NCBI GenBank assembly: GCA_023250205.1
Contig: JAHFBE010000001.1
Location: 66,428 to 130,427, forward strand
Direction of reading: 5' to 3'
Source of the DNA: Candidatus Melainabacteria bacterium
GTDB lineage: Bacteria; Cyanobacteriota; Vampirovibrionia; 2-02-FULL-35-15
Length of the DNA: 64,000 nt
Position 1 is the first letter of the stretch; each line of letters starts with the position of its first letter. Under the pieces are notes generated by a model, which ran no database searches, was not told the origin of the DNA, and saw only the letters and a list, made by a program, of their open reading frames with translations. Shown piece by piece: positions 14,273 through 53,787 of this stretch. A program made the position numbers and the translations under genes.

Positions 14273-14283
14273 ATGATTCCTTG

Positions 14284-18647: not shown

Positions 18648-18662
18648 TAGGAGGCTACACTT

Positions 18663-19083: not shown

Positions 19084-19122
19084 GCATCTTATTAATTAAA
19101 AAAATGCTAGAGAAATTGCAAA

Positions 19123-22068: not shown

Positions 22069-22192
22069 ATAAAAATGAGTAGGCTTAGCCCTATTTCTAG
22101 GTCTACAACTTTATAGGGGAAACAATAAAAATTATTTCCTAAGATGAGTATAATTCTTAATAGAACTACCCTAAAGAAGTGGAGAGGAAGAT

Positions 22193-22429: not shown

Positions 22430-22434
22430 GCCTT

Positions 22435-24855: not shown

Positions 24856-24913
24856 AAGAATCAGTTATCTTGCTCAAGATAAGACTATTCTTAATCTCTA
24901 ATCGTGATATTCA

Positions 24914-25879: not shown

Positions 25880-25881
25880 TG

Positions 25882-26877
25882 TTATACCTCAAGTTTTGTA
25901 ATTTTCTGAATGACTAAATAACCAAAAGTCATTGAAATTGCACATCCAATTAAAATAATTTTTCCAATGGGATCAGTAGCAAACGAATTGTATACAGCTG
26001 GAGCCAATAGATTCAATACAATATATAAGCCAATCGGAAGAACTAATAATAAAACTGCAGATGCCTGATTTTCTGCTGTTAAAGCTTTAATCATTCCTTT
26101 TAGTCTGAATCTTTCTCTCACTGTATTTCCTATACTTGAAGTCAGTTCAGCCAGATTTCCACCAAGCTCCCTATTTATAATTATTCCAGTACATAAGATC
26201 TGGACATCCATAGTGTTTACTCTTCTTGAAAGATTGTTTAAAGCTTCACTTATCGGGAGTCCAAGATTAATTTCAATAATAACTTTTCCAAATTCTTCAC
26301 CAATTGGTCCAGGGAATTCTTCGGCTAAATGCTTTAGAGCAGCCTGAACATCCAATCCTGCACGAACATCACTACTAATCAAATCCAGTGCTTGAGGGAG
26401 TTGCTGAACAAATGCAGCTGTCCGCCTTTCTTTTAAGAACGTGAGTAAAATATACGGAACTATAGCTATACCAAATCCCACAAATGGAATATGAAAGAAT
26501 ATATTCACAAGCATAAATCCAGTTAATCCAAGGAATACAGTAAAAAGTAAAAATTCCCCTGCTTTTATTTTTAAGCCGCTTTGTTCTATAAGATTAATCA
26601 ATGACCTTGCGTTTTCTTTCAGGAATTTTAAGAAAATAGTATTTAACCATGGAATAGAGCTTATTCTCAGATCTCTCCTTAAATCAGATTCTTCGCCATC
26701 TTGACTAAGATTAGACTTTTCTTCAGCAAAAAAATGGTCTGTGCTATCAAGCGCTCGTTCCAATCTTTTATTCTGATGTTTTTTTTCTTGAGCATTCTGC
26801 CATATAAAAAAAGCAGACATGCAAAGCAATATTACTGCAATAAAACCAATTACAGAAAAGAACAAAGGTGCAAGCAT
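25882..26877 (-). CDS. tadB: TadB (GspF-like inner-membrane platform protein).
   Basis: T2SS-F-like domain. Follows cpaF. Confidence 0.8.
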   Translation of the reverse strand: MLAPLFFSVIGFIAVILLCMSAFFIWQNAQEKKHQNKRLERALDSTDHFFAEEKSNLSQDGEESDLRRDLRISSIPWLNTIFLKFLKENARSLINLIEQSGLKIKAGEFLLFTVFLGLTGFMLVNIFFHIPFVGFGIAIVPYILLTFLKERRTAAFVQQLPQALDLISSDVRAGLDVQAALKHLAEEFPGPIGEEFGKVIIEINLGLPISEALNNLSRRVNTMDVQILCTGIIINRELGGNLAELTSSIGNTVRERFRLKGMIKALTAENQASAVLLLVLPIGLYIVLNLLAPAVYNSFATDPIGKIILIGCAISMTFGYLVIQKITKLEV

Positions 26878-26880
26878 AAT

Positions 26881-28275: not shown

Positions 28276-28292
28276 AGATTTATCTGCTCAAT

Positions 28293-29513
28293 TTAAAACC
28301 AGCTAAGCAATCCTTTTTTCTTCGCTTTAGTATCATCCACAACTAAATTCTTTTCTTTGACACCTTTATCTTCTTGAGCCTGTGGCAAATCTGTCTTTGT
28401 AAACTTGCTTGCAAGAATATTATAAGAAGTAGCTAATGGGGAATTTGGTGAGACTTCTAAAAGTGGTCTTCCATAGTTTGCTGACTCAACACACAATTCC
28501 CAATCGTTTGGAAGAGAATGAAATATCTGATGATTAATCTGTTTTTGAATAAGCTCTGGTTCCAAACTTCCTATATACCAGTCCTGCCTATTGATTATTG
28601 GTTTAATTCTATGTTCTTGCACTCCTACCTCTTTTAAGGTATTTATAAAGAATCTGTTATCTCTAATCGCCAGAAGATCAAAGGTTGTCAACATAAGAAT
28701 ATCTGTTGCTCTTTGAATAAATAACATCGTAGTTTCATCAAGTAAATGTGTTGAAGTATCTATTACGATGTAATCATAAATTTCACTTGCAATATCAATA
28801 ACCTTACCAAGAGTTTCCAGATTTACATCATGTAAATCATTTGTTTTCATTAATCCACCGATTACAGAAAGATTTTTTCCAACCATGCTTACTGCATTAG
28901 TAAGATATTGCTCATCCAAGCTGTGACCCTGCCTGCAAATATCTGCCAGAGTACACTTAGGAATTACATTAAGCAAAACTGTTACATGGTTTGAGAAACC
29001 AGCTCCATCAATAAGCAATGTTTTCTTTCCATATACATTTGCAAGTGAATAACTTAAATTTACTGCAGCGGTACTTACACCTGTACCACCCTTATAACTT
29101 GTAAATGTAATAATTTTTGAAGTTCTTCTATTTATAGCATTTGTGCTAGGAGCAGTGTGCAATCGATCTAAGCTAGAAATTAATTCTGATCTCTTAAATG
29201 GTTTCACAAGAAATCCTATTGCTCCAAGTCTAATTCCTTCAATTGCAAGATCTGCATCTTTTTTATCAGATACTATTAAAAAATGTTTACCAACAAGATT
29301 TGGAGTAACTAAAGCTACTGTTTGAAATGAGTTTTCATGATTACCAGTAAAGTCAAATATAATTAATTCTGCTTCTTTTACTAAAGTCGGATCTTCCGCA
29401 ATTTTTGAATCTGTCGCTAAAGATATTTCTACCGGGCCTTCCCAGACATCAGCAAATGTATCTTTCCAATATTTATCAGAAGTTTCTTGAGTTATTATTG
29501 TAACTTTAAGCAT
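28293..29513 (-). CDS. tadZ: TadZ/CpaE: N-terminal receiver-like domain plus a MinD/ParA-like ATPase.
   Basis: Deviant Walker A in a ParA-like domain (SYKGGTGVSTAAVNLSYSLA). REC-like N-terminal ~120 aa. Adjacent to cpaF. Confidence 0.8.
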   Translation of the reverse strand: MLKVTIITQETSDKYWKDTFADVWEGPVEISLATDSKIAEDPTLVKEAELIIFDFTGNHENSFQTVALVTPNLVGKHFLIVSDKKDADLAIEGIRLGAIGFLVKPFKRSELISSLDRLHTAPSTNAINRRTSKIITFTSYKGGTGVSTAAVNLSYSLANVYGKKTLLIDGAGFSNHVTVLLNVIPKCTLADICRQGHSLDEQYLTNAVSMVGKNLSVIGGLMKTNDLHDVNLETLGKVIDIASEIYDYIVIDTSTHLLDETTMLFIQRATDILMLTTFDLLAIRDNRFFINTLKEVGVQEHRIKPIINRQDWYIGSLEPELIQKQINHQIFHSLPNDWELCVESANYGRPLLEVSPNSPLATSYNILASKFTKTDLPQAQEDKGVKEKNLVVDDTKAKKKGLLSWF

Positions 29514-38403: not shown

Positions 38404-41400
38404 ATGAATAGATTCAACAAAATAAAATTTGTTAAAGTTGTCCTCAGCCTTTTTGCTGTCTTCTTATTTAATTTGCCGACTCTGGCAGCATTCAATGTTA
38501 ATTACAATAATCTCTTCAAATTACCTGGTAATATAATCTCTGATTCACCAAGCATAGAGAATGCTCTCTCTGAATCTACGGATGAATCCCAAACACCTCA
38601 AGAACCTGAAGAATCAACTTCTATCGAAACTCCATCTCTCAGCTTACCTTCTATTCCAACTCAAACAATTAATCATAATCAAAAAATATTAGACTCCTTC
38701 TCCTGTAATCCATCTGATAAACCTAATTCAATCATCAACTTCACCAATAAATCTTTCAACGTTACGAACATAACTCCTTCTGCAATTAACACTGCTGATT
38801 TAAATAATGACAACTTCCTAGATTTAATTATTCTTGATTCTTCAAAAAAATATATTACTGTTGTTCTCGGTACTTCTGATGGAGCTTTTAACAATAATAG
38901 ATCAATAAACACTGATAACTCTCACAACAAGATTTATGTAAAAGATTTAAACAATGATAATTTATTAGATATCATCTTACTCAGTAAAGAAAACGACACT
39001 GTAACCATACTCCTCAATCAAGGTAACAATTCGTTCTCAGATGCGCTTCACTTTAATACTGGAACCAGTCCCACAGCTCTAACTGTTGGTGATTTCAATA
39101 ATAACGGTACTTCTGATATCTTAGTTATTAATAGTGGGGATTCTAAGGCTTCTCTAGTTTTAGATTTAAACAATCCGGTAAAAAGCATTGATTTAGATTC
39201 TGATTCAGCTCCTACCTCTCTCACTTCTCTTGATTTTAATAACGATGGCAATCTTGATCTTGCTGCTACATCAAATAACAACAACGTTACTTTGTTTACT
39301 GGCAATGGGGATGGTTCTTTTGCTAGTAGTAATGTTATTTCCCTTAACTCTAAACCTATTTCTATTTCTACCGCTGATTTAAATAACGATAGTGTCTTAG
39401 ATTTAATAGCTTCTGTTTCAAGTACAGACTCAAATAACATTGCAGTTTCTTTAGGTAAGAGTGATGGGACCTTCGGGAATGTTCACTACTTCCCTGTTGC
39501 TGGATTAGCTACTGATTTTACTTTTGCTAATCTCAACGGTGACTGTAATTTAGATATTATTACTGCTAATAATTCTGACAACTTCTCTATTCTTCGTGGA
39601 AATGGCAATGGTTCTTTTGCTCCTTCTATTGAATTTCCTCTTTCTTCCTCTTCGGTTAATAGGGGAGATCTTAATAAGGATGGATTAGATGATCTCGTTT
39701 TTATTACTTCAGATAGTAAAGTCCAACTATTAATTAATGGTAAATCTGATTCTGATTTAGCTACTTTAGAACCTACTTGTAAAGATGGCGATGCTTATTG
39801 TGGTGATGGTTTTGAACTAAATTGCATTGATAGCACTAATAGTATTGGTTGTGACCCTGACACTGGCAAACCTGGTTGTTATGATCTAAACCTCTCTACC
39901 TTCGATAAAACTCTTATAAATACACCTACTTGTATCCCTAAAGATAAATCTTCTTTCCTCACTCGTACTTTCATGGCTAACAAATCCACAATATCCCAGA
40001 AGTTTTCTTTCTCTGTATCTGATACTAATAGAGCTTATTGCCAGGATGGAATGACTCTTTGTGCTAACACTGCTCTCTCCCCTACATGTGAAGCTGGTGC
40101 TATTAGACTTTGCACTGCTACTAACAATGATTCTGAACCTATTTGTTTAAACTCTTCTAACAGAAGAGTTACTATTGCTCGATGTGGCAGTGTTTCTTCC
40201 TCTTCATTACCTACCTGTGTTGATAGTATGTCCATCTGTAATAATGGTGGTACTTTTAAATGCGATGAAACTTCTGACTTGAAACTCTGCCCTTCTACTA
40301 ATAATGATTCTGAACCTCTTTGTTTAAATTCTGCTCTCCACAGAATTAGAGCAGGACTTTGCTTCCTTCAAGCTTCTTCATCAAGCTCTTCTTCTGGTGG
40401 AAGCTCATCAAGCAGTGGAACACAGTGCACACCAACAATAACAATCAGAGCTGAAACTCTTCCTTCTGCAAGAAGAGGTACTTTAGCTGTCTGGAATCCA
40501 TCTACAAATAAAGCTTATATCTTTGGTGGAGGATATGTTAATAACTGGTTTACTGATATCGTCGAATATGACCCGGCTACTTCTATGGTTACTGTACGCC
40601 CAGAAGTCCTTCCACAAATATTAGCCTCAGGTAACTCAGCTGTCTGGAATCCTGTTACTAATAAAGCTTATATCTTTGGAGCAATTAATAGTGATACTAC
40701 TCTTTGTAGAATTATTGAATATGATCCAGCTACTTCTACCATTTCTTATCGCCCTGAAGCTCTTCCTTTAATATCCTCGACTTCTGCCGTTTGGAACACT
40801 GCTACTAATAAAGCTTATATATTCGGTGGAAATGGCAGCAATATAATCATTGAATATGACCCCGCTACTTCAATGGTTACTACTCGCCCTGAAACTCTTC
40901 CTGATTCAGTATCCTACAGTCAGACCTCTGCTGCCTGGAATCCTATTACTAATAAAGCTTATATCTTTGGCGGAAATGGATCTCCTGGATTTAGTAATAA
41001 AATTATTGAATACGATCCAGCTACTTCTATGGCTATTATAAAATCTGAAACTCTTTTTTCAGCCAGAGGCCTCACTTCTGCTGTTTGGAATTCAAATACA
41101 AATAAAATTTATATTTTTGGCGGAGTTAATAGTAGCACCCAATTAAATGAAATCATTGAATATGACCCAGCTACTTCTATGGTTACAACCAGACCTGAAA
41201 CTTTTCCTACCGGGAGACATTGGACTTCTGCCATTTTGAATCCTACTACTAATAAAGCTTATATCTTTGGGGGCAGCGATAATATGGTTGGCGAGATTAA
41301 TCAAATTGTTGAATATACTGCTTGTGCAGGTTCAACAACTAGCTCTTCAAGCAGCTCTTCATCAAGTTCCTCTTCTGGAAATATTCCTTGCTCAAGCGGA

Positions 41401-44400
41401 GCAAGCTGCTATTTGAATGGTGGCACTGGAACAAGTGGTCAACAGTGTCCATCAGCTAGCTTAGCAGTTTGTTCAGATGGCATGACTCCACAAGCAACAG
41501 GAGCTTCCTGCTATGTAAACGGCTGTATGGGTTCTTGCTATACTCTATGCCCTTCATCAAGCTCTTCTTCAACGACTTCTTCATCTAGCTCATCTTCATC
41601 AAGCTCTTCTTCAGGAGGTTTGCCACCACCACCGCCACAAGCCACAAGCAATGTTTGCATTCCTTCTTTCACAAATACAACCACACCAAATTCTATTGTC
41701 CCAGTCAGTTTCGCAGAATTCACATATAACAACGATTACGATTTAACTGGCGACAGCATTAACGATTTAATTCAGTCACAAAACACCACCAACACTTTTG
41801 GAAGAGTAAGCAACATATCAAAGTTATTTTATAGCTCTGACTACATCTTCTTTACTCCAGGGGATTTTAATAATGATAGTAAAACTGACATTGCTGTAAG
41901 TTATAGCGAAATTAACTTATCTCCTCAAAGCATGCTTTCAACATTCTTAGCTCCTACTTTCAATGAAACTTCAATGATTAATACTGTTGGGACCTTGCAA
42001 CTAACATCAGGAGACTACAACAAAGATGGTTACATAGATATTGCATTGTTAAAATATAATGGTATTTCAATAGTTCCAGGGACAGGAACTGGATTATTAA
42101 CTGGAGCCGAAGTTGCAATTCCTAACACTCCAAACAATGACAACAACTATGCTCCAGTAATCATCACCACAAACTTAAATAGCGACAATAAACCAGATCT
42201 AATTGTATTTTCAGATGGAGTGATTACAAGCTTAATTAACACTGGCAATAATTCTTTTAGCTTTAGCAAAACCCAATTCAATATTAACAATGAAGTTGAT
42301 ATTCCTCCTATAGTTAAAGACTTTAATGGTGACAACATTCCTGATATTGCACTGATATTACAGAGCTCAAGTTTCCAAAAATATCTTTCAATACTTAGAG
42401 GAAATGGCGATGGTACTTTTACTAAAATTATTGATTACTCAGTACTGTATGATCCAGGAGCCGGTGGATTAGGATCAATTACAACAGGTGATTTCAATTC
42501 TGACAATAAAGCAGATCTTTTAATTGCAAGTAAATATGATACTGCTACAGTTCTCACTGGTAACGGAGATTGTACATTTGCAAAAGCATTAGATTTTAAT
42601 ACTGGCGAAGTTAATACAACTATCGTTATTCAATCCACTGATTTCAACAGCGATGGAAAGCTTGACTTTATCATTCAAGATCAATATAAATCTAATTACT
42701 ATAAATTTACAAATAATAGTACCTGCATGACTGGCTCTTCTTCTAGTAGCTCTTCTTCTAGTAGCTCTTCTTCTAGTAGCTCTTCTTCTAGTAGCTCTTC
42801 TTCTAGTAGCTCTTCTTCTAGTAGCTCTTCTTCTAGTAGCTCTTCTTCTAGTAGCTCTTCTTCTAGTGGAAGCTCATCAAGCAGTGGAACACAGTGCACA
42901 TCATCAATATCAGTCAGACCTGAAACATTTCCATCAGGCTTTGGCACTTCTGCTATCTGGAATAGCACTAACAACAAAGCTTATACCTTTGGTGGACACA
43001 ATGGCGCTAACCAACTATCTACAATTATTGAATATGATAATTTTATGATAACTACACCAGCCGTTCTTCCAGTAGTAAGAAGCGATTCCTCAGCTGTCTA
43101 TGTCCCAAGTACAAATAAAGCTTATATCTTTGGTGGTTACAATTCACTAAATGCTACAAACAATCTCCTTAATTCAATTACTGAATATAATTTTGCTACT
43201 TCTGCAGCATCCACAAGACCTGAAGTCCTTCCTTCTGGAAGAAGCGGTACATGTGCTGTTTTAAACCCTACTACAAATAAGATATATATCTTTGGCGGAT
43301 ATATAATAAACAGCTCCAGTAATGTTATTGGGTTAAATCAAATACTTGAATATGATCCTATTACTTCCATGCTAGTTGTAAGACCTGAAACTCTTCCTGC
43401 TGGATTAAACAATGCTTCTGCTGTTTGGAATCCACTCACAAATAAAGCTTATATACTTGGTGGAACTGTATCTGGCGTAGGAGATTCAAATCAAATACTT
43501 GAATATGATCCTGCTATTTCTATGGTTACAGTAAGAACTGAAACTCTCCCTGCTTCAATGAATTATAGTTACACTTCGGCGGTTTGGAACAGTACTGCAA
43601 ACAAAGTTTATCTCTTTGCTGGACAAGGAAATGGATATTCAAACGAAGTCATTGAATACGATCCTGCCACTTCTACAGTCTCTACTAATAATGCAACTTT
43701 TCCTACTTCAAGAAGTTTTACTTCTGCTGTATGGAATCCAATTACAAACAAAGCTTATATCTTTGGTGGAGCAAACTCCATGGTCCTAAATGAAATTGTT
43801 GAGTTTAATCCTTGTAGTGGTTCTGCCTCATCAACTTCCTCAAGCTCATCAAGTAGTTCTTCTTCCTCAAGTGGTTCTGCACCATTACTACCAGTAGTAT
43901 CCAGTCTATCTCCAAACTCTGGCATGGCTGGGAATAGCATTAATATCAACGGAAGCAACTTCACTGGTGCTACTACCGTAAGATTCGGAAGTACAAATGC
44001 AAGCTTCCAGATTTCTTCTTCTCAACTAATTTCTACTACTATTCCTGCCGGCTCTGGAGCCGTAGATGTTTTAGTTACCACTTCTGCCGGCACCTCAGCA
44101 AATACAGCAAATGATAATTTTACTTACTTAACTTCTTCTAGCAGTTCATCATCAGGTGGAACAGTTAGCTGCAACGGTACAAGCATTAATGAGTTTACTA
44201 TTCCTACCGGAAACAGTCTGCCTAGATACATTAAAAAAGGACCAGATGGAAATCTTTGGTTTACTGAAACTATCGGAAATAAAATTGGAAGAATTACTCC
44301 TACTGGCAGCATTACAGAGTTTTCTGTTCCAAGCGGTCCATCTGGAATTACTAACGGACCTGATGGTAATCTTTGGTTTAACACTGCAAGCAGCATTGGA

Positions 44401-47400
44401 AAAATCTCTACTACTGGTACAGTAACTTCATATACCGTTCCTAATTCCAACAATAGTTTATACGACATTACTGATGGACCTGATGGTAATCTTTGGTTTG
44501 CTGAACAATTGGGAAATAAAATTAGGAAAATTACTACTGCTGGAATAATCACTGAATATTCTGTTCCCACTGCTAGCAGTGAACCTTCAGGCATTACTAA
44601 AGGACCTGATGGCAATCTTTGGTTTGTCGAACGCATGGGAAATAAAGTTGGAAAAATTACAACTGCTGGAGTAATCACTGAATATCTAATTCCAACTGCT
44701 ACTAGTAGGCCATTTCTTATTACTAACGGACCTGATGGCAATCTTTGGTTTGCAGAATCAAATGCAAATAAAATAGGAAAAATTACAACTGCTGGAGTAA
44801 TTACTGAATATACAGTTCCTACCTCTAATTGTGCTCCATTTGCTATTACTGCAGGACCGGATGGAAACATCTGGTTTACTGAAGAAACTGGAAATAAAAT
44901 TGGAAAAATTACTCCTTCAGGGATAATTACAGAATATCCAGTTCCTACACCAAGTGCAGATTTATTTGGCATTACCACTGGTCCAGATGGGAATATCTGG
45001 TTTACTGAATCAATTGGAAATAAGATTGGAAAAATCACTTGTTCGTCAAATTCATCAAGTAGCTCATCATCTGGTGGAAGCAGTGGTGGAAACGCTTGCT
45101 GTAGGAGCGGTTGTCAACTACATAACTTTGGTACTGCTGGTACTCAATGCAATGGAACACGAGAGCAAGCAAGTGGATCTTCTTTTAACTGCATTCTACC
45201 ATTATGTCCAGCCCCAGGCTGTGACTATGGATGCTGCTGCCCATCTACTTCTTCAAGCTCTTCTTCAAGTGGTTCAACAGGTATCTGCCAAGCAGGAAGA
45301 TACTCTAATACAGCTTTAAATTGGAATGATGCAAATTCTTTTTGTCAACAAGGTAATGGCAGTCTTCCTACTGCTTATGATTTCCCAATAAATGCTCCAA
45401 CTGGAAGATATTACTGGTCCAGTTCATGTTCTAGTAATTACTGTACTTTTGCATCTCCTGAAGGAAATTACGCTTCCTCAGCTCAAACAACCAGTAACCC
45501 TGGAAATATTTATGCATTTTGTTTATGCAACTCATCGGGCTCATTACCTTCAAGCAGTTCTTCTTCTGGTGGTGGAACACAGTGCACACCAACAGTAACA
45601 GTCAGACCAGAGACATTTCCATCAGGCTTTGCTACTTCTGCTATTTGGAATAGTACTAACAACAAAGCTTATACTTTTGGTGGACATAATGGTAATCAAC
45701 TATCTAGAATTATTGAATATGATAATTTTATGGTAGTAACTTTACCAGCAATCCTCCCTTCAATAAGAAGTGATACTTCAGCTGCCTATGTCCCAAGCAT
45801 AAATAAAGCCTATATCTTCGGTGGTTACAATTCACTAAATGCTACAAACAATCTTCTTAATTCAATTATTGAATATAATTTTGCAACTTCTATAGTAACA
45901 ACAAGATCTGAAGCTCTTCCTTCCGGAAGAAGTGGCACTTGTGCAGTTTTAAATCCTACTACTAATAAGATTTATATCTTTGGTGGATATAATGGAGATA
46001 CTCAGCTATCTCAAATACTTGAATACGATCCTATTACTTCCATGCTCATTGTAAGACCGGAGACTCTTCCTTATGGATTAAATAATGCTTCTGCTGTATG
46101 GAATCCAATTACAAACAAAGCTTATATTTTTGGTGGACTTGCATCTGATATAGGATATTCAAATCGAATACTTGAATACGATCCTGCTACTTCTATGGTA
46201 ACTGTAAGAACTGAAACTCTTCCTAGTGCAATAAGTTATACCTCGGCAGTCTGGAATAGTACTACTAACAAAGTTTATCTCTTTGCTGGACAGGACTCAA
46301 ATGAAATCTTAAATAAAATCATTGAATACGATCCTACGACTTCTATGGTAACTGTAAGAACTGAAACTTTCCCTACTGTAAGAGGTTTTACTTCTGCTAT
46401 TTGGAATCCTATTACAAACAAAGCTTATATTTTTGGTGGAACAAATAATTCCGGTATCTTATATCAAATTGTTGAGTTTAATCCTTGTAGTGGTTCTACC
46501 TCTTCAACTACTTCCAGCAGTTCTTCCTCTAGCAGTTCTTCCTCTAGCAGTTCTTCATCCTCTTCTTCAAGTGGACAACAAGCATGTACACCAGCTCAAT
46601 GGGCATCTAGCGCATCTGCAAATAATTCTTACTCATCCTATCCCGCTTCTAATATAATTGGTGCCCCTCAATGTACTGGTTGCAATATCTGCTCTTCTCC
46701 AGATCCAACTAGCTCTGTCTGGCTAAATGAAATTGCTAATCAGGCAGCTATTGTTGAAGTTACTTTTCCTTCCCCCGCTATTGCTGACTCCATTCTAATC
46801 AGAGAAGCTTATTATCCTGGCTTTGTTAAATCTATTACTCTTAAAGATCAAAATGATAACCAAATTGGAAATATTATAAATGTAAATGATACTTCTTCTT
46901 GCCCCGATAATTATAACCTCATTATTCCTTTTCCCAGAACTTCTGCTCTGGTAGCTAAAGTCCTAATTAATACTCTTCCACAATCTTCTTATTCAGTAAT
47001 TGATGCTGTTCAACTTCGCTGCTCTGGTGTAACTTCTTCCAGTAGCTCTTCTTCTTCAAGTTCATCAAGCAGCTCATCATCAAGCGGAAGTTGTACTGTT
47101 GGAATGATTACTGAATTTACTGTTCCAACTTCTAATAGCTCACCGTGGGATATCACCACTGGTCCAGATGGTAACCTCTGGTTCACAGAACAGCAAAGAA
47201 ATAAGATAGGTAAGATTACAACAAATGGTGCTATTACTGAGTTTGACATACCTGGCTCACCCTCTAATATAACAGCAGGAGCAGATGGCAATCTTTGGTT
47301 TACAGAAGGTTCTAGAAATAAAATTGGAAAAATTTTAATTGATGGTACTGTAACTGAATTTACTATTCCAATTGCCAGTGTTAATCCACATGGAATTACG

Positions 47401-50400
47401 CTGGGACCAGATGGAAATCTCTGGTTTACAGGACCAGGTTATGGAGCCGGAGGTGAAAAAAATATATTAGGAAGCATTACGACCAATGGAAATATTATTT
47501 TATTTACTACCCCTACTCTTAACAGTGGTCCATACAACATTACAAAAGGACCAGATGGAAATCTCTGGTTTACTGAATACTATGCTAACAAAATAGGCAA
47601 GATATCAACCGCTGGCATTATTACTGAATTCTCAATTCCAACACCTAATAGTTATCCACAGAATATTACTACAGGTCCAGACGGTAATTTATGGTTTACA
47701 GAAGTTGGCGGAGATAAAATAGGTAGAATTACCATTGGTGGCTCCATCAGTGAATTCACTATACCTACTGCTAATAGTGATCCAAATGGCATTACCAAAG
47801 GACCTGATGGAAACCTCTGGTTTACAGAACCCACTGCTAACAAAATAGCCTGGATTACAACAAATGGATCTTTTAACGAATTTTCTCTCCCAATATCTAG
47901 CAGTGCTCCATGGAAAATTACCACAGGACCAGATGGCAATCTCTGGTTTACAGAGTGGTATGGAAATAAAATTGGTAGGATTACAAGCTGTTCTTTAACT
48001 ACCACATCATCAAGCAGTTCATCATCAGGTTCAGGATGTAATTTAGCAGGAGCAGGAATAAGCTGCAGTGGGGCTCTAACTGTAGATAGTGCTCCTTCTT
48101 ATTGTAGTTTTATAGGAAATTATTGTAATCACAATTATTGGTGCTGTACCAGTTCTTCAAGCAGTTCTTCATCTGGCAGCACCAATTCTTGTTCTGATTC
48201 TGACGGTGGAAATAACAGAAATATACTTGGTACAGTTACTTACATGTTAAACGGTCAGTCAGGCAGTTCTACAGATTATTGTAATAATGGTACTAATACA
48301 AGCTGTAGTGGAACTAGTTGTACTCAAGTTGAATTCTTCTGCAGTGGGACGACTGTGGCTTCTTCTGTGACGGCATGTTCTAACTGTAATAATGGTATCT
48401 GTGTATCTTCTTCAAGCGGGTCCACACTACCAGCAGTTTCCAGTCTCTCTCCAAACTCTGGCATGTCAGGAAGCACTATTAACATTAATGGAAGTAATTT
48501 TACCGGTGCTACCACTGTAATGTTTGGAAGTACTAACGCAGGCTTTGTGCTCTCTTCTTCACAATTAATTTCTGCAACTGTCCCCGCCGGCTCTGGAACT
48601 GTAGATGTTTTAGTTACCACTTCTGCCGGAACCTCAGCAAATACAGCAAATGATAATTTTACTTACTTAACTTCTTCTAGCAGTTCATCATCTTCTTCTT
48701 CAAGCTCCTCTAGCGGAAGTGCAACTTGCTCTCCAAGCATAACAACTAAATCAGAAGTACTTCCATCTATAAGACGACTTACTTCTGCTGTATGGAATTC
48801 AAGCACTAATAAAGCTTATATTTTTGGTGGAGATAATGGTAGTAGTTCTGCAACCAACCAAATACTTGAATATAATCCAAGCACATCCGCAGTTTCTGCT
48901 AGACCTGAAACTCTTCCTACTGGAAGACAATACACCTCAGCAATATTTAACACCCTAACAAACAAAGCCTATATCTTTGGAGGAGCATCTACGGCGGGTT
49001 ATTTAAATGAAATACTTGAGTACGACTTGAACACCTTTATGATTGTTAATAAAGGAACTCTTCCTGCTGCAAGATTAGGTACCTCAGCAATTTGGAATCC
49101 TAACACTAATAAAGCCTATATCTTTGGTGGATTTGAAGAAACAGGTAGTTCAATAAGCCAAATCGTCGAATATAATTTAAATACCTTTACTACGAGCATA
49201 AGACCTGAAACATTGCCTTCAGCCAGAATGTACACTTCAGCAGTTTTTAACCCAAAAACAAATAAAGCTTATATCTTTGGTGGTTTCAGCAATAGTACAA
49301 GCATTAATGAAATCATTGAGTACGATCTGGCAACTTTTATGATTACTACAAAATCAGAAAGACTTCCACAAACAATTTATGGTTCTTCTGCAGTCTGGAA
49401 TTCCACAACAGATAAAGCTTATGTTGTTGGAGGTTTCAGTCAAACAGCCCCTGTCAATCAAATTTTTGAATATAATCCAACTGCAGGTACTGCTATTGGA
49501 AGGCAAGAGTTACTTCCACCAACACTACATTTTGCATCTGCTGTCTGGAATTCTTCAAACAATAAAGCTTATATTTTTGGAGGACAAAGCAACAATGTTT
49601 CCACAAATCAAATTCTTGAATTTAATCCTTGTATTTCAAGTTCCTCATCAGGACTTACTTGTACCACAAGTGCTAATTGTCCAATTGGTACTTGTACAAA
49701 TGGAATGACTTATCAAAGATATAATTGTACAAATGGACAGTGCATACAAATAAATTATGTAACAGATCCTTGCTCTTCATCAAGCAGTTCATCTTCTTCA
49801 GGAAATATTCTTTGTTCAAGTGGTGGAAGCTGCTATTTAAATGGTGGCACAGGTACAAGTGGACAACAATGTCCATCAGCAAGTTTGGCTTATTGTTCAA
49901 ACGGTACGACCCCTACACCAACAGGAGCTTCCTGCACTATAAGTGGCTGTATGGGTTCCTGTTATACTTCATGCCCTTCTAGCAGTTCATCTTCTTCGGG
50001 AATTAGTACTTGTACCACAAGTACTAATTGTCCACTTGGTACTTGTCCAAATGGAATGACTTATCAAAGATACAGTTGTATAAATGGACAGTGCATACAG
50101 GCAAATTACTTAGTAGATCCATGCTCCTCTTCCGGCTCTTCTGGCAGTAACACTTGCGTCTCTGGAACATTTAGTGATTTCAGTTACTCATCATTAGGAA
50201 ACTGGGATGGTGGTTCATATGACATTGTATATGGACCTGACGGTAATTTTTGGTTTACTGACATCTATAATAATCGAATAGGAAGAATGACACCTGCTGG
50301 AATCGTTGATTTCTTTACTGTTACAACTACTAATAGTCAGCCAAGGTACATAACTAGAGGCTCTGATGGCAATCTCTGGTTTACTGAAACCACTGCAAAC

Positions 50401-53400
50401 AAAATAGGAAGGATTACTCCAGCCGGTGTGATTACTGAATTTGCAGTTCCAACAAGTAACAGTGGGCTACGTGATATTACTGCTGGACCAGACTGTAATT
50501 TATGGTTCACCGAATTTAATACAGATAAAATTGGAAGAATTACACCTTCTGGAGCAATTTCTGAATTTATTATTCCTATAAGTAGAGGTCCATTAGAAAT
50601 TACTGCTGGTTCAGATGGAAATCTTTGGTTTACTGAAAATACCGGAAATAAAATAGGTAGGATTACTACAAATGGCATACTAACTGAATTTAGTACTCCT
50701 GCTGGTGCAACCGCTCCACCACAAGGCATTACCAAAGGACCAGATGGAAATATCTGGTTTACTGAAAATCCAGGATACTTTATAACTGGTCAGGGAAAGA
50801 TAGGAAGAATCACTCCATCTGGATCAATTTCTGAGTTTAATATTCCTCTGGCAAACATTACAGCACGACCACTTGGAATTGCCACAGGCACTGATGGAAA
50901 TTTATGGTTTGGCGAGGACAGCGGCAAGTTTGGAAAAGTTACTACAAACGGTACAGTAACCTTATTTAATGCTCCTGATTATAATGTAGGTATTACTTCT
51001 GATGCACCTAGTAGCATTGCCACCGGACCAAATGGAAATCTCTGGTTTACTATCTATGGGGCAAATAAGATAGGAAGATATAATTTATGTAATTCCCCAT
51101 CTCCTTCTTTAAGTAATGCTTGTACCCCAAGCAGTACTTCCACTAGCTCATCATCAGGTGGTTCTAATAACTGTGAAATTGAATTTGGAGATGAAAATAT
51201 TGTTAAATACAAAGTTCCAAATGGCAATCCTATAAACATTACAAAAGGTCCAGATTCAAATCTTTGGTTTACTGAAAATCCACTTTACTCTGCTACTAAC
51301 ATGACAGGAAAGATCGGTAAAATCAATGTTGTTGGTTCAATAACTGAGTATAGTACTTCAACACAAACCGCCACCTATAACATAAACAACGGACCTAATG
51401 GCTTCCTCTGGTTTCTATCATCTGCACTAAGTAGAGCAACCACAAATGGAAGCATTACTGAATTCACTAACAATAACTTGCAAGTTGCAACAATCACTGA
51501 TGGTCCTGATGGAAATTTATGGGCAATTGGTTATGATATCTCAGGTCAGTCCTCATACAACAAAATATATAAAGTAAGTCCAGCCACTGGAAATATAATA
51601 GCTGGATATGGTGGTACTACTGATTACAACATAAGATCCTACACTTCTATAACTAAAGGTGTTGACAACAATATATGGTTTACTGAGTATCACGAGTCAT
51701 ATAGTGCAGGTTCATATAATCCTGTTAAAAGATCCATAGTAGGAAAAATTACAACTGCTGGTGAAATTACAGAGTATGCAATTCCTACAGCCGACAGAAA
51801 TATAACTGGCATTTATGCAAGATCCGATGGAAGTCTCTGGTATATTCTGCCAGTAGAAAATAAAATTGGAAGATTTGCTACTAATGGTGTTGTAAATGAA
51901 TTTAATCTTCCTTCAGGTATTTATCAACCAAAAAAACTTACAACAGGACCAGATGGAAATATTTGGTACTCACGATATACTACAGTGGGTAAAATTACCC
52001 CCGATGGAATGATAACTGAATTCTCTCTTCCACAGGGGATGTATGCAACTGATCTTATTACTGGCTTTGATGGAAACTTATGGATTGTAGATAGTTCCGG
52101 TTATATTGCTAAAGTCATTTCCTGCTTTGGTAGCTCTATCTGTGTAGAGAGTTTCTCAAACTATTCTTATGGCTCTACAAACTTTGGATGGAGCATAGAT
52201 CCTAGTGTTGCAGGTTATAATCCAAGAGTAGTACAAATTACTAATTATTATGGGAACTCCGGAAATTCTATTGAACTTAGACCATCTACAACATATAATG
52301 ATCCCGCCGTTATAAGAAAAACAATTCCAGCAGTCAGATATGGTTCATTCAAATTTGACGCACTACCAAATCAAACAACTGGAAACCTTTGTTTAGTGCT
52401 TGGTTCTCAACCAGGAAGCGATAGTTCCTCAATTACAACATGCTTTAGAAATAATGGTCGCTTAGAATATTTATCAGGTTCATCATACCTCCCAATTGGT
52501 TCTACATACAGTGGAATCTATTCAAGCAACACCTGGTACAACATAGAAGTAAAATGGTTTAACGGTAATTTTGATTTTTATGTAAACGGTTCAAAACTAA
52601 ACCCTTCACCTCTTCCTTACTCAGGATTCCAGGATTATCCAATCAACAGTGTTGTTTTAAGAGCAGAAAATTCAGGAGCCTTCTATATAGATAATGTTGT
52701 TGATCCTTATTGTTTTGCTACTTCAACAACATCATCTTCCACATCATCAAGTTCGTCTTCAAGCTCATCATCAGGAGGATATTGTCCACAATGCCAATCT
52801 ACCTGCCCTACCAGCTGTCCTTCTGGAACTATAAATTGTAACGGTTCGTTCTTTTCAGATATTTGTGACTATCAGTCACGGTGGTGTGGATGCACACCAA
52901 GCTCTTCTACATCTACTTCAGGTACTCCTGTTCAGGGATTCTGTGATTCTTTAGGACAGCCTTATTGCAATGATAATATGTCAGTCCCTACCTGTCCTTC
53001 AGGACAGCCTTGTATTAGATGTCTTGGTGGTGGTGCTGCTGGATGTTTTGCAAGTATAACTAGTAGTTTTGCTGAAGAAATTATTTGTGCTCCATATGGC
53101 TCTACTGCTCCAATTTGCATGGCGACTTCTACTTCTTCTAGCAGTGGTGGTGGAGCTCAAGGATTTTGTGATGGTAATGGTCAACCATATTGTACTAATG
53201 GACAAGTACCAACGTGTCCTTATAACAAACCTTGTATTAAATGTCTAGCCAACGGTGCTGCTGATTGCTACGGTGATATTAATGATTATAACGGTGTTTC
53301 CATTACCTGTTCACCATCAGGCACTACCGCTCCAATTTGCATGGCGACTTCTACTTCTTCAACATCTTCTACAACAGGTGGTCAAGGTTTCTGTGATGGT

Positions 53401-53787
53401 AATGGTCAACCATATTGTGACAATGGACAAATACCTACTTGCCCTTATGACAAGCCTTGTATTAAATGTCTAGCAAATGGTTCTGCTGATTGTTACAACG
53501 GTCTAAATGATTATAATGGTGTTTCTGTTACTTGTTCTCCATCAGGGAACACCGCACCAGTTTGCACGGCTACTTCTACATCTTCCACTTCTTCAAGTAC
53601 TGGTGGATCAAATCTCCCAACATGCAGTTCTAACTCATGTAATTTTGGAGGCAGTCCAACATGTCAGTCTGGAACCACAAATTGCTCTTTTGGATTAACA
53701 CCTACCTGTGAATATTACTTTGGTGAATGCAGAGCTATTTGCAGAGGAGAAAATGGATATGATCCTGATGGAGCTTATTGTAATTAA
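38404..53787 (+). CDS. Giant secreted multi-propeller surface protein (5127 aa). Contains two FG-GAP-like propellers, four Kelch-like propellers, four Vgb/NHL-like propellers, two IPT/TIG domains and Cys-rich modules.
   Basis: Single uninterrupted ORF with a signal peptide. Repeats DLNNDNxLDLI (FG-GAP), TSAVWNxxTNKAYIFGG (Kelch-like), GPDGNLWFTE…NKIGKIT…ITEY (Vgb lyase-like), LSPNSGMxG…NGSNFTGATTV (IPT/TIG) and poly-Ser linkers. Confidence 0.85.
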   Translation: MNRFNKIKFVKVVLSLFAVFLFNLPTLAAFNVNYNNLFKLPGNIISDSPSIENALSESTDESQTPQEPEESTSIETPSLSLPSIPTQTINHNQKILDSFSCNPSDKPNSIINFTNKSFNVTNITPSAINTADLNNDNFLDLIILDSSKKYITVVLGTSDGAFNNNRSINTDNSHNKIYVKDLNNDNLLDIILLSKENDTVTILLNQGNNSFSDALHFNTGTSPTALTVGDFNNNGTSDILVINSGDSKASLVLDLNNPVKSIDLDSDSAPTSLTSLDFNNDGNLDLAATSNNNNVTLFTGNGDGSFASSNVISLNSKPISISTADLNNDSVLDLIASVSSTDSNNIAVSLGKSDGTFGNVHYFPVAGLATDFTFANLNGDCNLDIITANNSDNFSILRGNGNGSFAPSIEFPLSSSSVNRGDLNKDGLDDLVFITSDSKVQLLINGKSDSDLATLEPTCKDGDAYCGDGFELNCIDSTNSIGCDPDTGKPGCYDLNLSTFDKTLINTPTCIPKDKSSFLTRTFMANKSTISQKFSFSVSDTNRAYCQDGMTLCANTALSPTCEAGAIRLCTATNNDSEPICLNSSNRRVTIARCGSVSSSSLPTCVDSMSICNNGGTFKCDETSDLKLCPSTNNDSEPLCLNSALHRIRAGLCFLQASSSSSSSGGSSSSSGTQCTPTITIRAETLPSARRGTLAVWNPSTNKAYIFGGGYVNNWFTDIVEYDPATSMVTVRPEVLPQILASGNSAVWNPVTNKAYIFGAINSDTTLCRIIEYDPATSTISYRPEALPLISSTSAVWNTATNKAYIFGGNGSNIIIEYDPATSMVTTRPETLPDSVSYSQTSAAWNPITNKAYIFGGNGSPGFSNKIIEYDPATSMAIIKSETLFSARGLTSAVWNSNTNKIYIFGGVNSSTQLNEIIEYDPATSMVTTRPETFPTGRHWTSAILNPTTNKAYIFGGSDNMVGEINQIVEYTACAGSTTSSSSSSSSSSSSGNIPCSSGASCYLNGGTGTSGQQCPSASLAVCSDGMTPQATGASCYVNGCMGSCYTLCPSSSSSSTTSSSSSSSSSSSSGGLPPPPPQATSNVCIPSFTNTTTPNSIVPVSFAEFTYNNDYDLTGDSINDLIQSQNTTNTFGRVSNISKLFYSSDYIFFTPGDFNNDSKTDIAVSYSEINLSPQSMLSTFLAPTFNETSMINTVGTLQLTSGDYNKDGYIDIALLKYNGISIVPGTGTGLLTGAEVAIPNTPNNDNNYAPVIITTNLNSDNKPDLIVFSDGVITSLINTGNNSFSFSKTQFNINNEVDIPPIVKDFNGDNIPDIALILQSSSFQKYLSILRGNGDGTFTKIIDYSVLYDPGAGGLGSITTGDFNSDNKADLLIASKYDTATVLTGNGDCTFAKALDFNTGEVNTTIVIQSTDFNSDGKLDFIIQDQYKSNYYKFTNNSTCMTGSSSSSSSSSSSSSSSSSSSSSSSSSSSSSSSSSSSSSSSSSSSSGSSSSSGTQCTSSISVRPETFPSGFGTSAIWNSTNNKAYTFGGHNGANQLSTIIEYDNFMITTPAVLPVVRSDSSAVYVPSTNKAYIFGGYNSLNATNNLLNSITEYNFATSAASTRPEVLPSGRSGTCAVLNPTTNKIYIFGGYIINSSSNVIGLNQILEYDPITSMLVVRPETLPAGLNNASAVWNPLTNKAYILGGTVSGVGDSNQILEYDPAISMVTVRTETLPASMNYSYTSAVWNSTANKVYLFAGQGNGYSNEVIEYDPATSTVSTNNATFPTSRSFTSAVWNPITNKAYIFGGANSMVLNEIVEFNPCSGSASSTSSSSSSSSSSSSGSAPLLPVVSSLSPNSGMAGNSININGSNFTGATTVRFGSTNASFQISSSQLISTTIPAGSGAVDVLVTTSAGTSANTANDNFTYLTSSSSSSSGGTVSCNGTSINEFTIPTGNSLPRYIKKGPDGNLWFTETIGNKIGRITPTGSITEFSVPSGPSGITNGPDGNLWFNTASSIGKISTTGTVTSYTVPNSNNSLYDITDGPDGNLWFAEQLGNKIRKITTAGIITEYSVPTASSEPSGITKGPDGNLWFVERMGNKVGKITTAGVITEYLIPTATSRPFLITNGPDGNLWFAESNANKIGKITTAGVITEYTVPTSNCAPFAITAGPDGNIWFTEETGNKIGKITPSGIITEYPVPTPSADLFGITTGPDGNIWFTESIGNKIGKITCSSNSSSSSSSGGSSGGNACCRSGCQLHNFGTAGTQCNGTREQASGSSFNCILPLCPAPGCDYGCCCPSTSSSSSSSGSTGICQAGRYSNTALNWNDANSFCQQGNGSLPTAYDFPINAPTGRYYWSSSCSSNYCTFASPEGNYASSAQTTSNPGNIYAFCLCNSSGSLPSSSSSSGGGTQCTPTVTVRPETFPSGFATSAIWNSTNNKAYTFGGHNGNQLSRIIEYDNFMVVTLPAILPSIRSDTSAAYVPSINKAYIFGGYNSLNATNNLLNSIIEYNFATSIVTTRSEALPSGRSGTCAVLNPTTNKIYIFGGYNGDTQLSQILEYDPITSMLIVRPETLPYGLNNASAVWNPITNKAYIFGGLASDIGYSNRILEYDPATSMVTVRTETLPSAISYTSAVWNSTTNKVYLFAGQDSNEILNKIIEYDPTTSMVTVRTETFPTVRGFTSAIWNPITNKAYIFGGTNNSGILYQIVEFNPCSGSTSSTTSSSSSSSSSSSSSSSSSSSSGQQACTPAQWASSASANNSYSSYPASNIIGAPQCTGCNICSSPDPTSSVWLNEIANQAAIVEVTFPSPAIADSILIREAYYPGFVKSITLKDQNDNQIGNIINVNDTSSCPDNYNLIIPFPRTSALVAKVLINTLPQSSYSVIDAVQLRCSGVTSSSSSSSSSSSSSSSSSGSCTVGMITEFTVPTSNSSPWDITTGPDGNLWFTEQQRNKIGKITTNGAITEFDIPGSPSNITAGADGNLWFTEGSRNKIGKILIDGTVTEFTIPIASVNPHGITLGPDGNLWFTGPGYGAGGEKNILGSITTNGNIILFTTPTLNSGPYNITKGPDGNLWFTEYYANKIGKISTAGIITEFSIPTPNSYPQNITTGPDGNLWFTEVGGDKIGRITIGGSISEFTIPTANSDPNGITKGPDGNLWFTEPTANKIAWITTNGSFNEFSLPISSSAPWKITTGPDGNLWFTEWYGNKIGRITSCSLTTTSSSSSSSGSGCNLAGAGISCSGALTVDSAPSYCSFIGNYCNHNYWCCTSSSSSSSSGSTNSCSDSDGGNNRNILGTVTYMLNGQSGSSTDYCNNGTNTSCSGTSCTQVEFFCSGTTVASSVTACSNCNNGICVSSSSGSTLPAVSSLSPNSGMSGSTININGSNFTGATTVMFGSTNAGFVLSSSQLISATVPAGSGTVDVLVTTSAGTSANTANDNFTYLTSSSSSSSSSSSSSSGSATCSPSITTKSEVLPSIRRLTSAVWNSSTNKAYIFGGDNGSSSATNQILEYNPSTSAVSARPETLPTGRQYTSAIFNTLTNKAYIFGGASTAGYLNEILEYDLNTFMIVNKGTLPAARLGTSAIWNPNTNKAYIFGGFEETGSSISQIVEYNLNTFTTSIRPETLPSARMYTSAVFNPKTNKAYIFGGFSNSTSINEIIEYDLATFMITTKSERLPQTIYGSSAVWNSTTDKAYVVGGFSQTAPVNQIFEYNPTAGTAIGRQELLPPTLHFASAVWNSSNNKAYIFGGQSNNVSTNQILEFNPCISSSSSGLTCTTSANCPIGTCTNGMTYQRYNCTNGQCIQINYVTDPCSSSSSSSSSGNILCSSGGSCYLNGGTGTSGQQCPSASLAYCSNGTTPTPTGASCTISGCMGSCYTSCPSSSSSSSGISTCTTSTNCPLGTCPNGMTYQRYSCINGQCIQANYLVDPCSSSGSSGSNTCVSGTFSDFSYSSLGNWDGGSYDIVYGPDGNFWFTDIYNNRIGRMTPAGIVDFFTVTTTNSQPRYITRGSDGNLWFTETTANKIGRITPAGVITEFAVPTSNSGLRDITAGPDCNLWFTEFNTDKIGRITPSGAISEFIIPISRGPLEITAGSDGNLWFTENTGNKIGRITTNGILTEFSTPAGATAPPQGITKGPDGNIWFTENPGYFITGQGKIGRITPSGSISEFNIPLANITARPLGIATGTDGNLWFGEDSGKFGKVTTNGTVTLFNAPDYNVGITSDAPSSIATGPNGNLWFTIYGANKIGRYNLCNSPSPSLSNACTPSSTSTSSSSGGSNNCEIEFGDENIVKYKVPNGNPINITKGPDSNLWFTENPLYSATNMTGKIGKINVVGSITEYSTSTQTATYNINNGPNGFLWFLSSALSRATTNGSITEFTNNNLQVATITDGPDGNLWAIGYDISGQSSYNKIYKVSPATGNIIAGYGGTTDYNIRSYTSITKGVDNNIWFTEYHESYSAGSYNPVKRSIVGKITTAGEITEYAIPTADRNITGIYARSDGSLWYILPVENKIGRFATNGVVNEFNLPSGIYQPKKLTTGPDGNIWYSRYTTVGKITPDGMITEFSLPQGMYATDLITGFDGNLWIVDSSGYIAKVISCFGSSICVESFSNYSYGSTNFGWSIDPSVAGYNPRVVQITNYYGNSGNSIELRPSTTYNDPAVIRKTIPAVRYGSFKFDALPNQTTGNLCLVLGSQPGSDSSSITTCFRNNGRLEYLSGSSYLPIGSTYSGIYSSNTWYNIEVKWFNGNFDFYVNGSKLNPSPLPYSGFQDYPINSVVLRAENSGAFYIDNVVDPYCFATSTTSSSTSSSSSSSSSSGGYCPQCQSTCPTSCPSGTINCNGSFFSDICDYQSRWCGCTPSSSTSTSGTPVQGFCDSLGQPYCNDNMSVPTCPSGQPCIRCLGGGAAGCFASITSSFAEEIICAPYGSTAPICMATSTSSSSGGGAQGFCDGNGQPYCTNGQVPTCPYNKPCIKCLANGAADCYGDINDYNGVSITCSPSGTTAPICMATSTSSTSSTTGGQGFCDGNGQPYCDNGQIPTCPYDKPCIKCLANGSADCYNGLNDYNGVSVTCSPSGNTAPVCTATSTSSTSSSTGGSNLPTCSSNSCNFGGSPTCQSGTTNCSFGLTPTCEYYFGECRAICRGENGYDPDGAYCN
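42736..42867 (+). repeat. 15-bp tandem repeat (TCTTCTTCTAGTAGC) × ~8.8, encoding an in-frame poly-Ser linker inside the giant gene.
   Basis: Perfect tandem copies read directly. Confidence 0.9.

Follow-up and report, generated by a model that had tools for sequence, protein, structure and literature searches.

What kind of protein is encoded by a single gene of more than 15 kb in a melainabacterium, and is it likely to bind, to degrade or to build? The question is posed by a stretch of 64,000 nucleotides, referred to here as the window, from the Candidatus Melainabacteria bacterium assembly GCA_023250205.1 (contig JAHFBE010000001.1, positions 66,428 to 130,427). Nucleotides 38404..53787 (+) of the window form one uninterrupted open reading frame (ORF) of 5127 codons with an ATG start, which bears out the single 15.4-kb ORF and 5127-aa product described in an initial annotation made from the DNA letters alone. 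The reading we favour, with confidence somewhat above even, is that the product would be a Sec-exported, non-enzymatic and multivalent protein that binds glycans or cell surfaces. The evidence comes from its propellers, from a conserved N-terminal leader and Cys-rich module (M1) that it shares with a small family of proteins, and from its lectin-like modules.

The propeller array

The giant protein is rich in Ser (15.8%), Thr (10.8%), Asn (9.3%) and Gly (9.2%), contains about 154 Cys (3.0%) and has 13 His among its 5127 residues (0.3%). Runs of six or more Ser, Thr or Gly split it into 26 segments, and the domain boundaries defined by these linkers match the earlier map within a few codons. 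That map held about ten propellers of three types together with IPT domains, an arrangement confirmed by the Pfam scan and by blade motifs. The Vgb_lyase family (PF24684) scored 345 bits over the N-terminal half of the protein and 770 bits over the C-terminal half (cut-off 50). Two Kelch families, PF24681 (Kelch_KLHDC2_KLHL20_DRC7; cut-off 50) and PF24981 (Beta-prop_ATRN-LZTR1), gave 188 and 222 bits and 147 and 155 bits, respectively, while FG-GAP_3 (PF13517) reached 179 bits (cut-off 26.9) and FG-GAP (PF01839) 84.6 bits. The IPT/TIG family (PF01833) matched the first IPT segment, scanned alone, with an E-value of 4.9e-12 (46.1 bits, cut-off 20.9).

The two FG-GAP propellers lie at 38701..39774 (+) (aa 100-457), where the FG-GAP_3 score is spread over 7 stretches, and at 41620..42729 (+) (aa 1073-1442). 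Each has seven blades carrying DxNxDGxxD motifs, which are predicted to be calcium-type loops. Kelch propellers 1 to 4, at 40423..41328 (+) (aa 674-975), 42892..43827 (+) (aa 1497-1808), 45580..46488 (+) (aa 2393-2695) and 48721..49635 (+) (aa 3440-3744), all score above the profile cut-off and show a six-blade GG...Y...W pattern. Vgb-like propellers 1 to 3, at 44164..45051 (+) (aa 1921-2216), 47092..47997 (+) (aa 2897-3198) and 50149..51129 (+) (aa 3916-4242), have seven blades each, and in a divergent fourth copy at 51166..52128 (+) (aa 4255-4575) five blades fit the motif. Judged by profiles and motifs, the predicted protein holds ten propellers of three lineages.

The blades of a given propeller are highly alike, with blade-to-blade identities of 47-62% in the Kelch, 52-61% in the Vgb-like and 32-34% in the FG-GAP domains; the highest mean, 62%, is that of Kelch propeller 1, whose best matches among solved structures are the designed symmetric six-blade Kelch proteins (SAKe6). 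FG-GAP propeller 1 has no sequence match among solved structures. Whole domains are duplicated as well: Kelch 2 and Kelch 3 share 80% protein identity, and the two IPT domains share 86%. Highly repetitive FG-GAP and Kelch propellers with continuing blade amplification have been described in bacteria (PMC9218822), and both the high blade identity and the domain duplication seen here would fit such ongoing amplification. The propellers of that study and SAKe6 reach blade identities similar to those of the Kelch and Vgb-like propellers of the giant protein. The published cases are single propellers, whereas the present protein has ten from three lineages, plus duplication of whole propellers. It may serve as a natural example of propeller amplification and domain shuffling in progress.

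A homologue search with the Kelch-IPT-Vgb stretch returned 2580 homologues, of which the best 120 (P0001-P0120) were examined. These are environmental proteins of the Vgb_lyase family (PF24684), 500-1550 aa in length, with the same seven-blade GPDGNLWFTE...NKIGRIT propeller (45-60% identical). They often have 2-4 tandem Vgb propellers and may carry IPT/TIG (P0008, P0011, P0013), FG-GAP (P0034, P0071, P0114), LamG (P0116), Ig-like or fn3 domains. Unlike the giant protein, they are 4-10 times shorter and cover about one third of the query, and none of the best 120 combines Kelch with Vgb_lyase or has the leader, M1 or other Cys modules. Many of them have been named 'streptogramin lyase' by JGI.

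That name points to a different reading of the giant protein, as an extracellular degradative enzyme array in which cyclic depsipeptides or polysaccharides would be the substrates of Vgb-like lyases or lactonases, while the Kelch domains would act as oxidases or epimerases. Besides the naming of the homologues, it draws on the strong resemblance of the Vgb-like propellers to the virginiamycin B lyase of S. aureus (E 6.8e-75 against 2z2n for propeller 1), on a weak Pfam match to the sialic acid epimerase NanM (46.1 bits, cut-off 45) and on the catalytic Vgb-fold propellers of cyanobacterial CylK and BrtB (PMC8916777, PMC7081238). The domains themselves argue otherwise. In a collinear alignment to 2z2n, residues H228, E268, H270 and E284 of S. 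aureus Vgb are replaced by F, D, F and S. We take these four to be the metal (Mg2+)-binding and catalytic residues of the enzyme; the list is reportedly that of Korczynska et al. from 2007. The four Vgb-like domains contain 0, 1, 0 and 1 His, respectively. The 600-bit NCBIfam cut-off for Vgb(A)/Vgb(B) is not reached by NF000022 (260 and 554 bits) or NF000096 (281 and 504 bits), even though these scores are sums over 3 and 7 stretches. Since the metal-binding and catalytic positions are replaced and His is nearly absent, the domains have the fold of Vgb without being streptogramin lyases. Staphylococcal Vgb (2z2n, 2z2o, 2qc5) shares its fold and strong sequence similarity with each of them but is a single-domain cytoplasmic enzyme with its Mg2+ and active site in blades 6 and 7 (PMC8916777), whereas the domains in the window are modules of a predicted secreted giant.

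The Kelch propellers lead to the same view. A copper site of the galactose oxidase or glyoxal oxidase type has two His and two Tyr ligands, and each Kelch domain has a single His (aa 939, 1532, 2428 and 3709), which excludes such a site. Pfam and NCBIfam scans of the whole protein returned no glycoside hydrolase, polysaccharide lyase or peptidase domain. An enzyme array is accordingly an improbable explanation, and the Vgb-like and Kelch propellers, as far as their residues tell, are binding scaffolds and neither lyases nor oxidases. The earlier description of the former as 'Vgb-lyase-like' holds for the fold, PF24684 scoring above its cut-off, and fails for the enzyme, whose catalytic residues are absent. 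By analogy, a large share of the Vgb-fold proteins named 'streptogramin lyase' may be binding modules and not resistance enzymes, and caution is advised with a label that, on thousands of environmental multi-domain proteins, probably denotes a binding fold.

Leader, M1 and a family of giant proteins

The N-terminus of the protein (38404..38490 (+), aa 1-29, MNRFNKIKFVKVVLSLFAVFLFNLPTLAA, with F following the putative cleavage site) carries the cleavable-looking leader that had been proposed as a signal peptide. It is the only hydrophobic segment of the protein (about aa 6-31), and its motif ...FNLPTL..(F/L)(N/D)xNYxNLF is conserved across a family of proteins that share both this leader and M1, the leaders of P0121, P0125, L085, L087 and L088 being 50-63% identical to that of the giant protein. 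The public gene call is 5107 aa long and begins 20 codons downstream of ATG 38404, at 38464. As the whole leader is conserved in P0121 and P0125, the ATG at 38404 is favoured over the public start.

M1 (39994..40374 (+), aa 531-657) is a module of 127 aa with 12 conserved Cys, built from two half-repeats of about 60 aa. It had been passed over as a 'Cys-rich region' and is anything but filler, as it proves to be a conserved, family-defining module. When the concatenated non-propeller modules were searched against 5.8 billion proteins, two matches were found, P0121 (1191 aa, with Kelch) and P0122 (1045 aa, with FG-GAP and Vgb); both carry the leader (...FLFNLPTFAA...) and the 12-Cys M1. When 1.84 billion representative proteins were searched exhaustively with the M1 region by HMMER, 10 of them matched. 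Nine are credible members of 609 to 3783 aa, and the tenth (P0130, 298 aa, E 8.7e-9) seems not to be related. A word-indexed profile search of 5.8e9 proteins with a five-sequence M1 alignment had found nothing, missing even P0121 and P0122 with their M1 identities of over 50%; given the 10 proteins found exhaustively, negatives from word-indexed searches are unreliable for short Cys-rich modules. The M1 of the giant protein is 38-59% identical to that of 9 other proteins. In the 10-sequence alignment (A4), 11 of the 12 Cys are invariant, and the twelfth is missing only from the truncated P0125. The M1 model had no match when compared with solved structures.

The members differ widely in content. 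In P0123 (2240 aa) and P0124 (2302 aa), propellers of the Kelch, Vgb-like and FG-GAP types occur together with M5/M6 (described below) or Lcl_C, while P0126 (3783 aa) has many Kelch propellers along with FG-GAP, Lcl_C, M5 and M6. P0125 is a fragment that keeps the N-terminal order of the giant protein (leader, FG-GAP, M0, M1) at 46% identity, which gives it the appearance of an orthologue; the shorter members have M1 directly after the leader. The giant protein is the largest complete member found here, and several others exceed 3000 aa. The mixture of FG-GAP, Kelch, Vgb and IPT domains, called highly unusual in the initial annotation, is indeed rare. It is no one-off, as P0123 and P0124 bring together all three propeller types.

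Eight family genes, coding for 2242, 3783, 1374, 2240, 609, 1045, 950 and 2982 aa, form an island in the metagenome-assembled genome (MAG) GCA_023250155.1 (JAHFBG010000002.1). Its coordinates are L087 2986..31352 and L085 1..23065 (JAHFBG010000002.1 and ERZ27280021 k141_2089216), and the MAG contig and the ERZ27280021 record are 100% identical over their 3518-bp overlap. Interspersed among the family genes are an AbiEii toxin-like gene, a 209-aa ORF and an AAA_14/DUF4143 ATPase gene. The last gene of the island (2982 aa, L085 16227..>23065) has the family leader (55% identical) and one copy of M6. It has no M1 match, and the approximately 5.8 kb between its leader and M6 match no module of the giant protein and no Pfam family. 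ERZ27280021 holds both the continuation of the island and the strain of the window, and the island belongs to a related or the same genome. Five more loci emerged when the M1 profile was run against 241 million metagenome records of JGI; all of them are clusters of family genes, with a G+C content of 35-36% and open frames reaching at least 3213 to at least 3481 aa. Elsewhere in the 64-kb window no family paralogue was found.

By these sequence comparisons, the leader and M1 define a very rare, lineage-specific multigene family that is new here. Neither the architecture nor M1 nor the family corresponds to anything named as a family in Pfam, NCBIfam or the PDB, and literature searches touching on them gave no description. 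The individual folds are known; the three-propeller architecture, M1 and the family are new. One melainabacterial lineage would appear to invest heavily in private giant secreted proteins, with a 15-kb gene and an eight-gene island, and M1 and the leader provide family markers that can be searched for, modelled and expressed.

Integrity and composition of the reading frame

The sequence is a short-read MEGAHIT contig of 135.9 kb (ENA ERZ27276474, k141_1672991), which raises the possibility that two or more family genes were fused in frame during assembly, or that repeats were collapsed. The point of fusion would be the longest poly-Ser linker (42730..42891 (+), aa 1443-1496), which is coded, at 42734..42867, by a perfect tandem array of a 15-nt unit (GCTCTTCTTCTAGTA, about 9 copies). 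This array of 134 nt is almost as long as the assembler's k of 141. A second, independently assembled sample (ERZ27280021, k141_566282) contains a 3598-aa partial call of the same gene on a contig that stops at about 42990 of the window, some 120 nt downstream of the repeat, and family paralogues are present in the same sample. The repeat is likely to be a site of length variation and of assembly breaks.

Most of the evidence speaks for a genuine gene. The two assemblies are 100% identical over the C-terminal 3294 aa compared. Dispersed exact repeats within the ORF reach 62 nt at most. Of the long internal repeats, Kelch 2 versus Kelch 3 is the most similar pair, and its DNA identity of 81% over 1 kb is far too low to mislead an assembler working at k = 141. 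Between the giant gene and the paralogue island there is no DNA match of 85% or more. The sequence beyond the repeat lacks a start codon and leader of its own, so that it must continue some leader-bearing gene; upstream, the order leader, FG-GAP, M0 and M1 recurs independently in P0125 and L088. Family ORFs of more than 3000 aa also exist elsewhere. A chimeric or collapsed origin is very unlikely.

The G+C content at third codon positions (GC3) of the giant gene is 0.22, compared with 0.212 +/- 0.031 in 30 neighbouring genes, and its codon usage is native. Its higher overall G+C is explained by second codon positions, which follow the Ser/Thr/Gly/Cys-rich composition. Horizontal transfer from a donor of different composition is ruled out by the native GC3. 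Promoter and terminator scans of both flanks gave matches at chance level. Inside the gene there are antisense ORFs at 44124..45038 (-) (304 aa), 39048..39440 (-) (130 aa) and 50337..50735 (-) (132 aa), the longest of which faces Vgb-like propeller 1. All three most likely arise as a side effect of the repeats and the compositional bias of the coding sequence. For four window proteins, the clustered protein collection had no exact match.

Lectin-like modules, function and genomic setting

The non-propeller Cys-rich and lectin-like modules were numbered M0 to M12, and none of them scores above a Pfam threshold. The clearest case is M6 (46576..47031 (+), aa 2725-2876), formerly an 'unknown domain' of about 155 aa. 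An AF2 model built from a six-sequence alignment (pLDDT 88.8, pTM 0.87) was compared with solved structures by Foldseek, which returned 88 matches in the PDB with E <= 1e-3. PAPP-A (E 3.6e-7, TM 0.67-0.75) and CBM32 modules ranked first, and many lectin modules of the CBM32/F5-8 type C kind were among them. Across these likenesses the values range from E 3.6e-7 to 5e-4 and from TM 0.55 to 0.75. A paralogous copy of M6 matches Pfam F5_F8_type_C at E 6.8e-5, and the giant protein's own copy has no sequence-level match in Pfam or PDB searches. M6 models as a galactose-binding domain-like beta-sandwich (CBM32/discoidin-like) and is a predicted sugar binder. It differs from CBM32 and PAPP-A domains in this want of sequence similarity and in its extra disulfides and a CxxCxxC loop.

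Two further modules are marginal candidates. M5 (45283..45549 (+), aa 2294-2382) is CTLD-like: the weak matches of its profile (E 1e-3 to 0.3) are almost all to CTLD folds (OvsA/FGE, DEC-205, mannose receptor, snaclecs, intimin), and its paralogous copies match FGE-sulfatase at E 0.003 (17.8 bits, cut-off 23.3). M9 (52129..52719 (+), aa 4576-4772) is a candidate LamG/ConA-like jelly roll, with a sub-threshold Laminin_G_3 match (E 0.047) that improves to E 1.6e-5 (25.5 bits, cut-off 27.6) in the paralogue P0128; among solved structures M9 has no sequence match. The initial annotation had suggested both assignments, and each gains marginal support, every profile score staying below threshold. 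Family paralogues also carry Lcl_C, which is counted toward the lectin-type repertoire. A diversity-generating retroelement target was considered for M5 and rejected, as its DNA has no second copy in the window and a Pfam scan of 30 flanking ORFs found no reverse transcriptase.

The favoured reading of the protein as a multivalent binder translates into the following model. Ten rigid propellers, two IPT domains (43879..44130 (+), aa 1826-1909, and 48427..48669 (+), aa 3342-3422) and lectin-type sandwiches would be strung like beads on flexible poly-Ser linkers, the chain being stabilised by about 150 Cys in small disulfide-rich modules. After Sec export via the leader, the protein would fold oxidatively outside the cytoplasm and present many independent binding faces, namely the top faces of the propellers and the lectin modules. 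The array could then attach with high avidity to glycans or surface polymers, whether these belong to other cells, to particles or to the envelope of the producer itself, and the leader and M1 may have a family-wide role such as sorting, docking or anchoring. The extracellular location, the binding of glycans or cell surfaces, what M1 does and how the protein crosses or attaches to the outer membrane are all inferred. The earlier suggestion of a giant adhesin or prey/host-binding protein gains footing from the CBM32-like M6, the marginal CTLD and LamG candidates and the lineage-specific presence of the gene, and it keeps the standing of a suggestion.

Several observations weigh against this reading. 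Pfam and NCBIfam gave no match to any LPXTG, T1SS/RTX, autotransporter, T9SS, PEP-CTERM or SLH model, in agreement with the initial annotation, which saw no obvious LPXTG, T1SS, T5SS or T9SS sorting signal. The leader is not followed by a lipobox Cys, and the C-terminus is Cys-rich and hydrophilic, with no hydrophobic or known sorting motif. As no recognised signal for outer-membrane export or anchoring was found, 'surface-exposed' is an assumption. The leaders of several paralogues have no obvious AxA cleavage site and could be uncleaved membrane anchors. The support for CTLD in M5 and LamG in M9 falls below curated thresholds, and the M1 model is based on 10 related sequences, so that the seeming novelty of its fold could be an artefact of modelling. 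The 15-nt repeat is the sole assembly-sensitive spot, where continuity and copy number depend on one assembly. Finally, the Tad/Flp pilus locus of the window and the giant gene downstream of it are about 9 kb apart, with PGK, PheA, a two-component pair and RecG between them; as these housekeeping genes separate the two, no functional link to the Tad system is established. Readings as a Rhs/teneurin-type toxin, an autotransporter or an RTX adhesin were rejected, since Pfam and NCBIfam scans found no such domains.

A structural role in the cell's own envelope or matrix, as part of a surface layer, sheath or biofilm scaffold in which propellers and Cys modules provide rigidity and self-association, is a less likely alternative. 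Repetitive, disulfide-rich modules joined by linkers are also typical of matrix and S-layer-associated proteins, FG-GAP calcium-type loops often stabilise assemblies, and the family-wide M1 could be a self-assembly unit. The window further encodes a Wza/Wzc exopolysaccharide export pair in addition to the Tad pilus locus. A core envelope component should be conserved, however, and in the nearest species the gene is missing from the syntenic locus and no family module occurs at those loci. No SLH or other known envelope-attachment domain was detected by Pfam or NCBIfam, and the presence of CBM32-like, CTLD-like and LamG-like modules suggests that varied ligands are recognised.

Huge proteins of more than 5000 aa and giant bacterial adhesins are among the subjects covered by recent surveys (PMC11573180; bioRxiv 10.1101/2023.11.21.568195). 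The giant protein resembles the RTX, Bap/SiiE-type and cyanobacterial SwmB adhesins in size class, N-terminal export signal, arrays of repeated modules and rapid, lineage-specific evolution. Known giant adhesins consist mostly of Ig-like, cadherin-like or RTX repeats and use T1SS, sortase or T5SS, while the protein described here has three classes of propeller on poly-Ser linkers and no export or anchor signal that could be found. Huge repetitive surface proteins are already a familiar theme. As the function here is inferred, the protein by itself opens no long-standing question.

A bolder proposal, which we regard as speculative and rather unlikely, is that the leader and M1 are the address tag of an undescribed export or surface-docking route in Melainabacteria, one that carries rapidly diversifying giant propeller and lectin proteins to the surface for attachment to prey, hosts or particles. 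If so, M1 would be a new disulfide-rich fold with a dedicated partner. Attachment of this kind would suit the predatory or epibiotic lifestyle known for Vampirovibrio. Melainabacteria as a whole are the non-photosynthetic sister group of Cyanobacteria and almost wholly uncultured.

The remaining parts of the protein are smaller. The leader is followed by an acidic, Ser/Thr/Pro-rich low-complexity spacer read from the translation (38491..38700 (+), aa 30-99), and FG-GAP propeller 1 by M0 (39766..39993 (+), aa 455-530), which is common to P0125 and L088. M2 (41380..41553 (+), aa 993-1050) has an 81% identical second copy at 49804..49962, within a group of modules ordered M3-M2-M3 by internal comparison (49654..50124 (+), aa 3751-3907); M3 is common to P0121, L087 and L091. 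M4, delimited by segmentation, has 10 Cys in 51 aa (45091..45243 (+), aa 2230-2280). M7 (aa 3212-3248) and M8 ('CxDSDGG...', aa 3261-3334) lie together at 48037..48405 (+), and M8 recurs in the family loci L087, L088, L091 and L092. The spacer, M0, M2, M4, M7 and M8 have no Pfam match. The C-terminal Cys-rich tail (52780..53784 (+)) comprises M10 (aa 4793-4832), which is common to P0121, three M11 repeats (aa 4842-5056) and M12 (aa 5070-5127). Both the three tandem repeats of about 65 aa, 50-57% identical to one another, and the duplicated Cys modules seen by the initial annotation are real by internal comparison. Between family members these modules have undergone duplication and shuffling.

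Housekeeping genes flank the giant gene. A cupin gene and RecG lie upstream in the opposite orientation, and the surroundings also include an arginase-family gene, FtsZ, a CbiA-like ATPase, PGK, PheA and a two-component pair. Three groundwater Candidatus Melainabacteria MAGs encode FtsZ proteins 84-87% identical to that of the window, and nothing else among 185,579 species genomes exceeds 68% identity. The Tad/Flp pilus locus (16559..29513) looks complete. It encodes TadE/G-like proteins (16559..17572, 21082..22068), RcpC/CpaB (19623..20495), an 806-aa secretin (22435..24855), two T2SSF TadB/C proteins, a T2SSE TadA/CpaF ATPase and a TadZ-like AAA_31 protein. Regions 6622..9563 and 13010..16401 hold genes for flagellar export and the flagellar switch (FliN-like, FliQ-family), together with a Wza-like polysaccharide exporter and a Wzz/Wzc-type tyrosine-kinase-like protein. 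Since two of these products, the secretin and the Wza-type exporter, belong to the outer membrane and the window also carries genes for flagellar export, the host is most likely a motile diderm; the exporter genes further suggest a melainabacterium that produces exopolysaccharide.

L005 and L006 are the two closest species genomes whose flanks are long enough for comparison, and in both arginase adjoins RecG; these genes are 62% and 72% identical, respectively, to the copies in the window. The cupin gene is also conserved in L006 (61%), where it is separated from arginase by about 90 bp. No family module was found in L005-L007. Because the locus is otherwise syntenic and arginase adjoins cupin/RecG in the relatives, the giant gene is a single-gene, lineage-specific difference, and the arginase-RecG junction may be a recurrent insertion site. 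In L005 (RIFCSPHIGHO2_02_FULL_34_12), an unrelated 410-aa ORF that has no Pfam match (13549..14781) lies between arginase and RecG.

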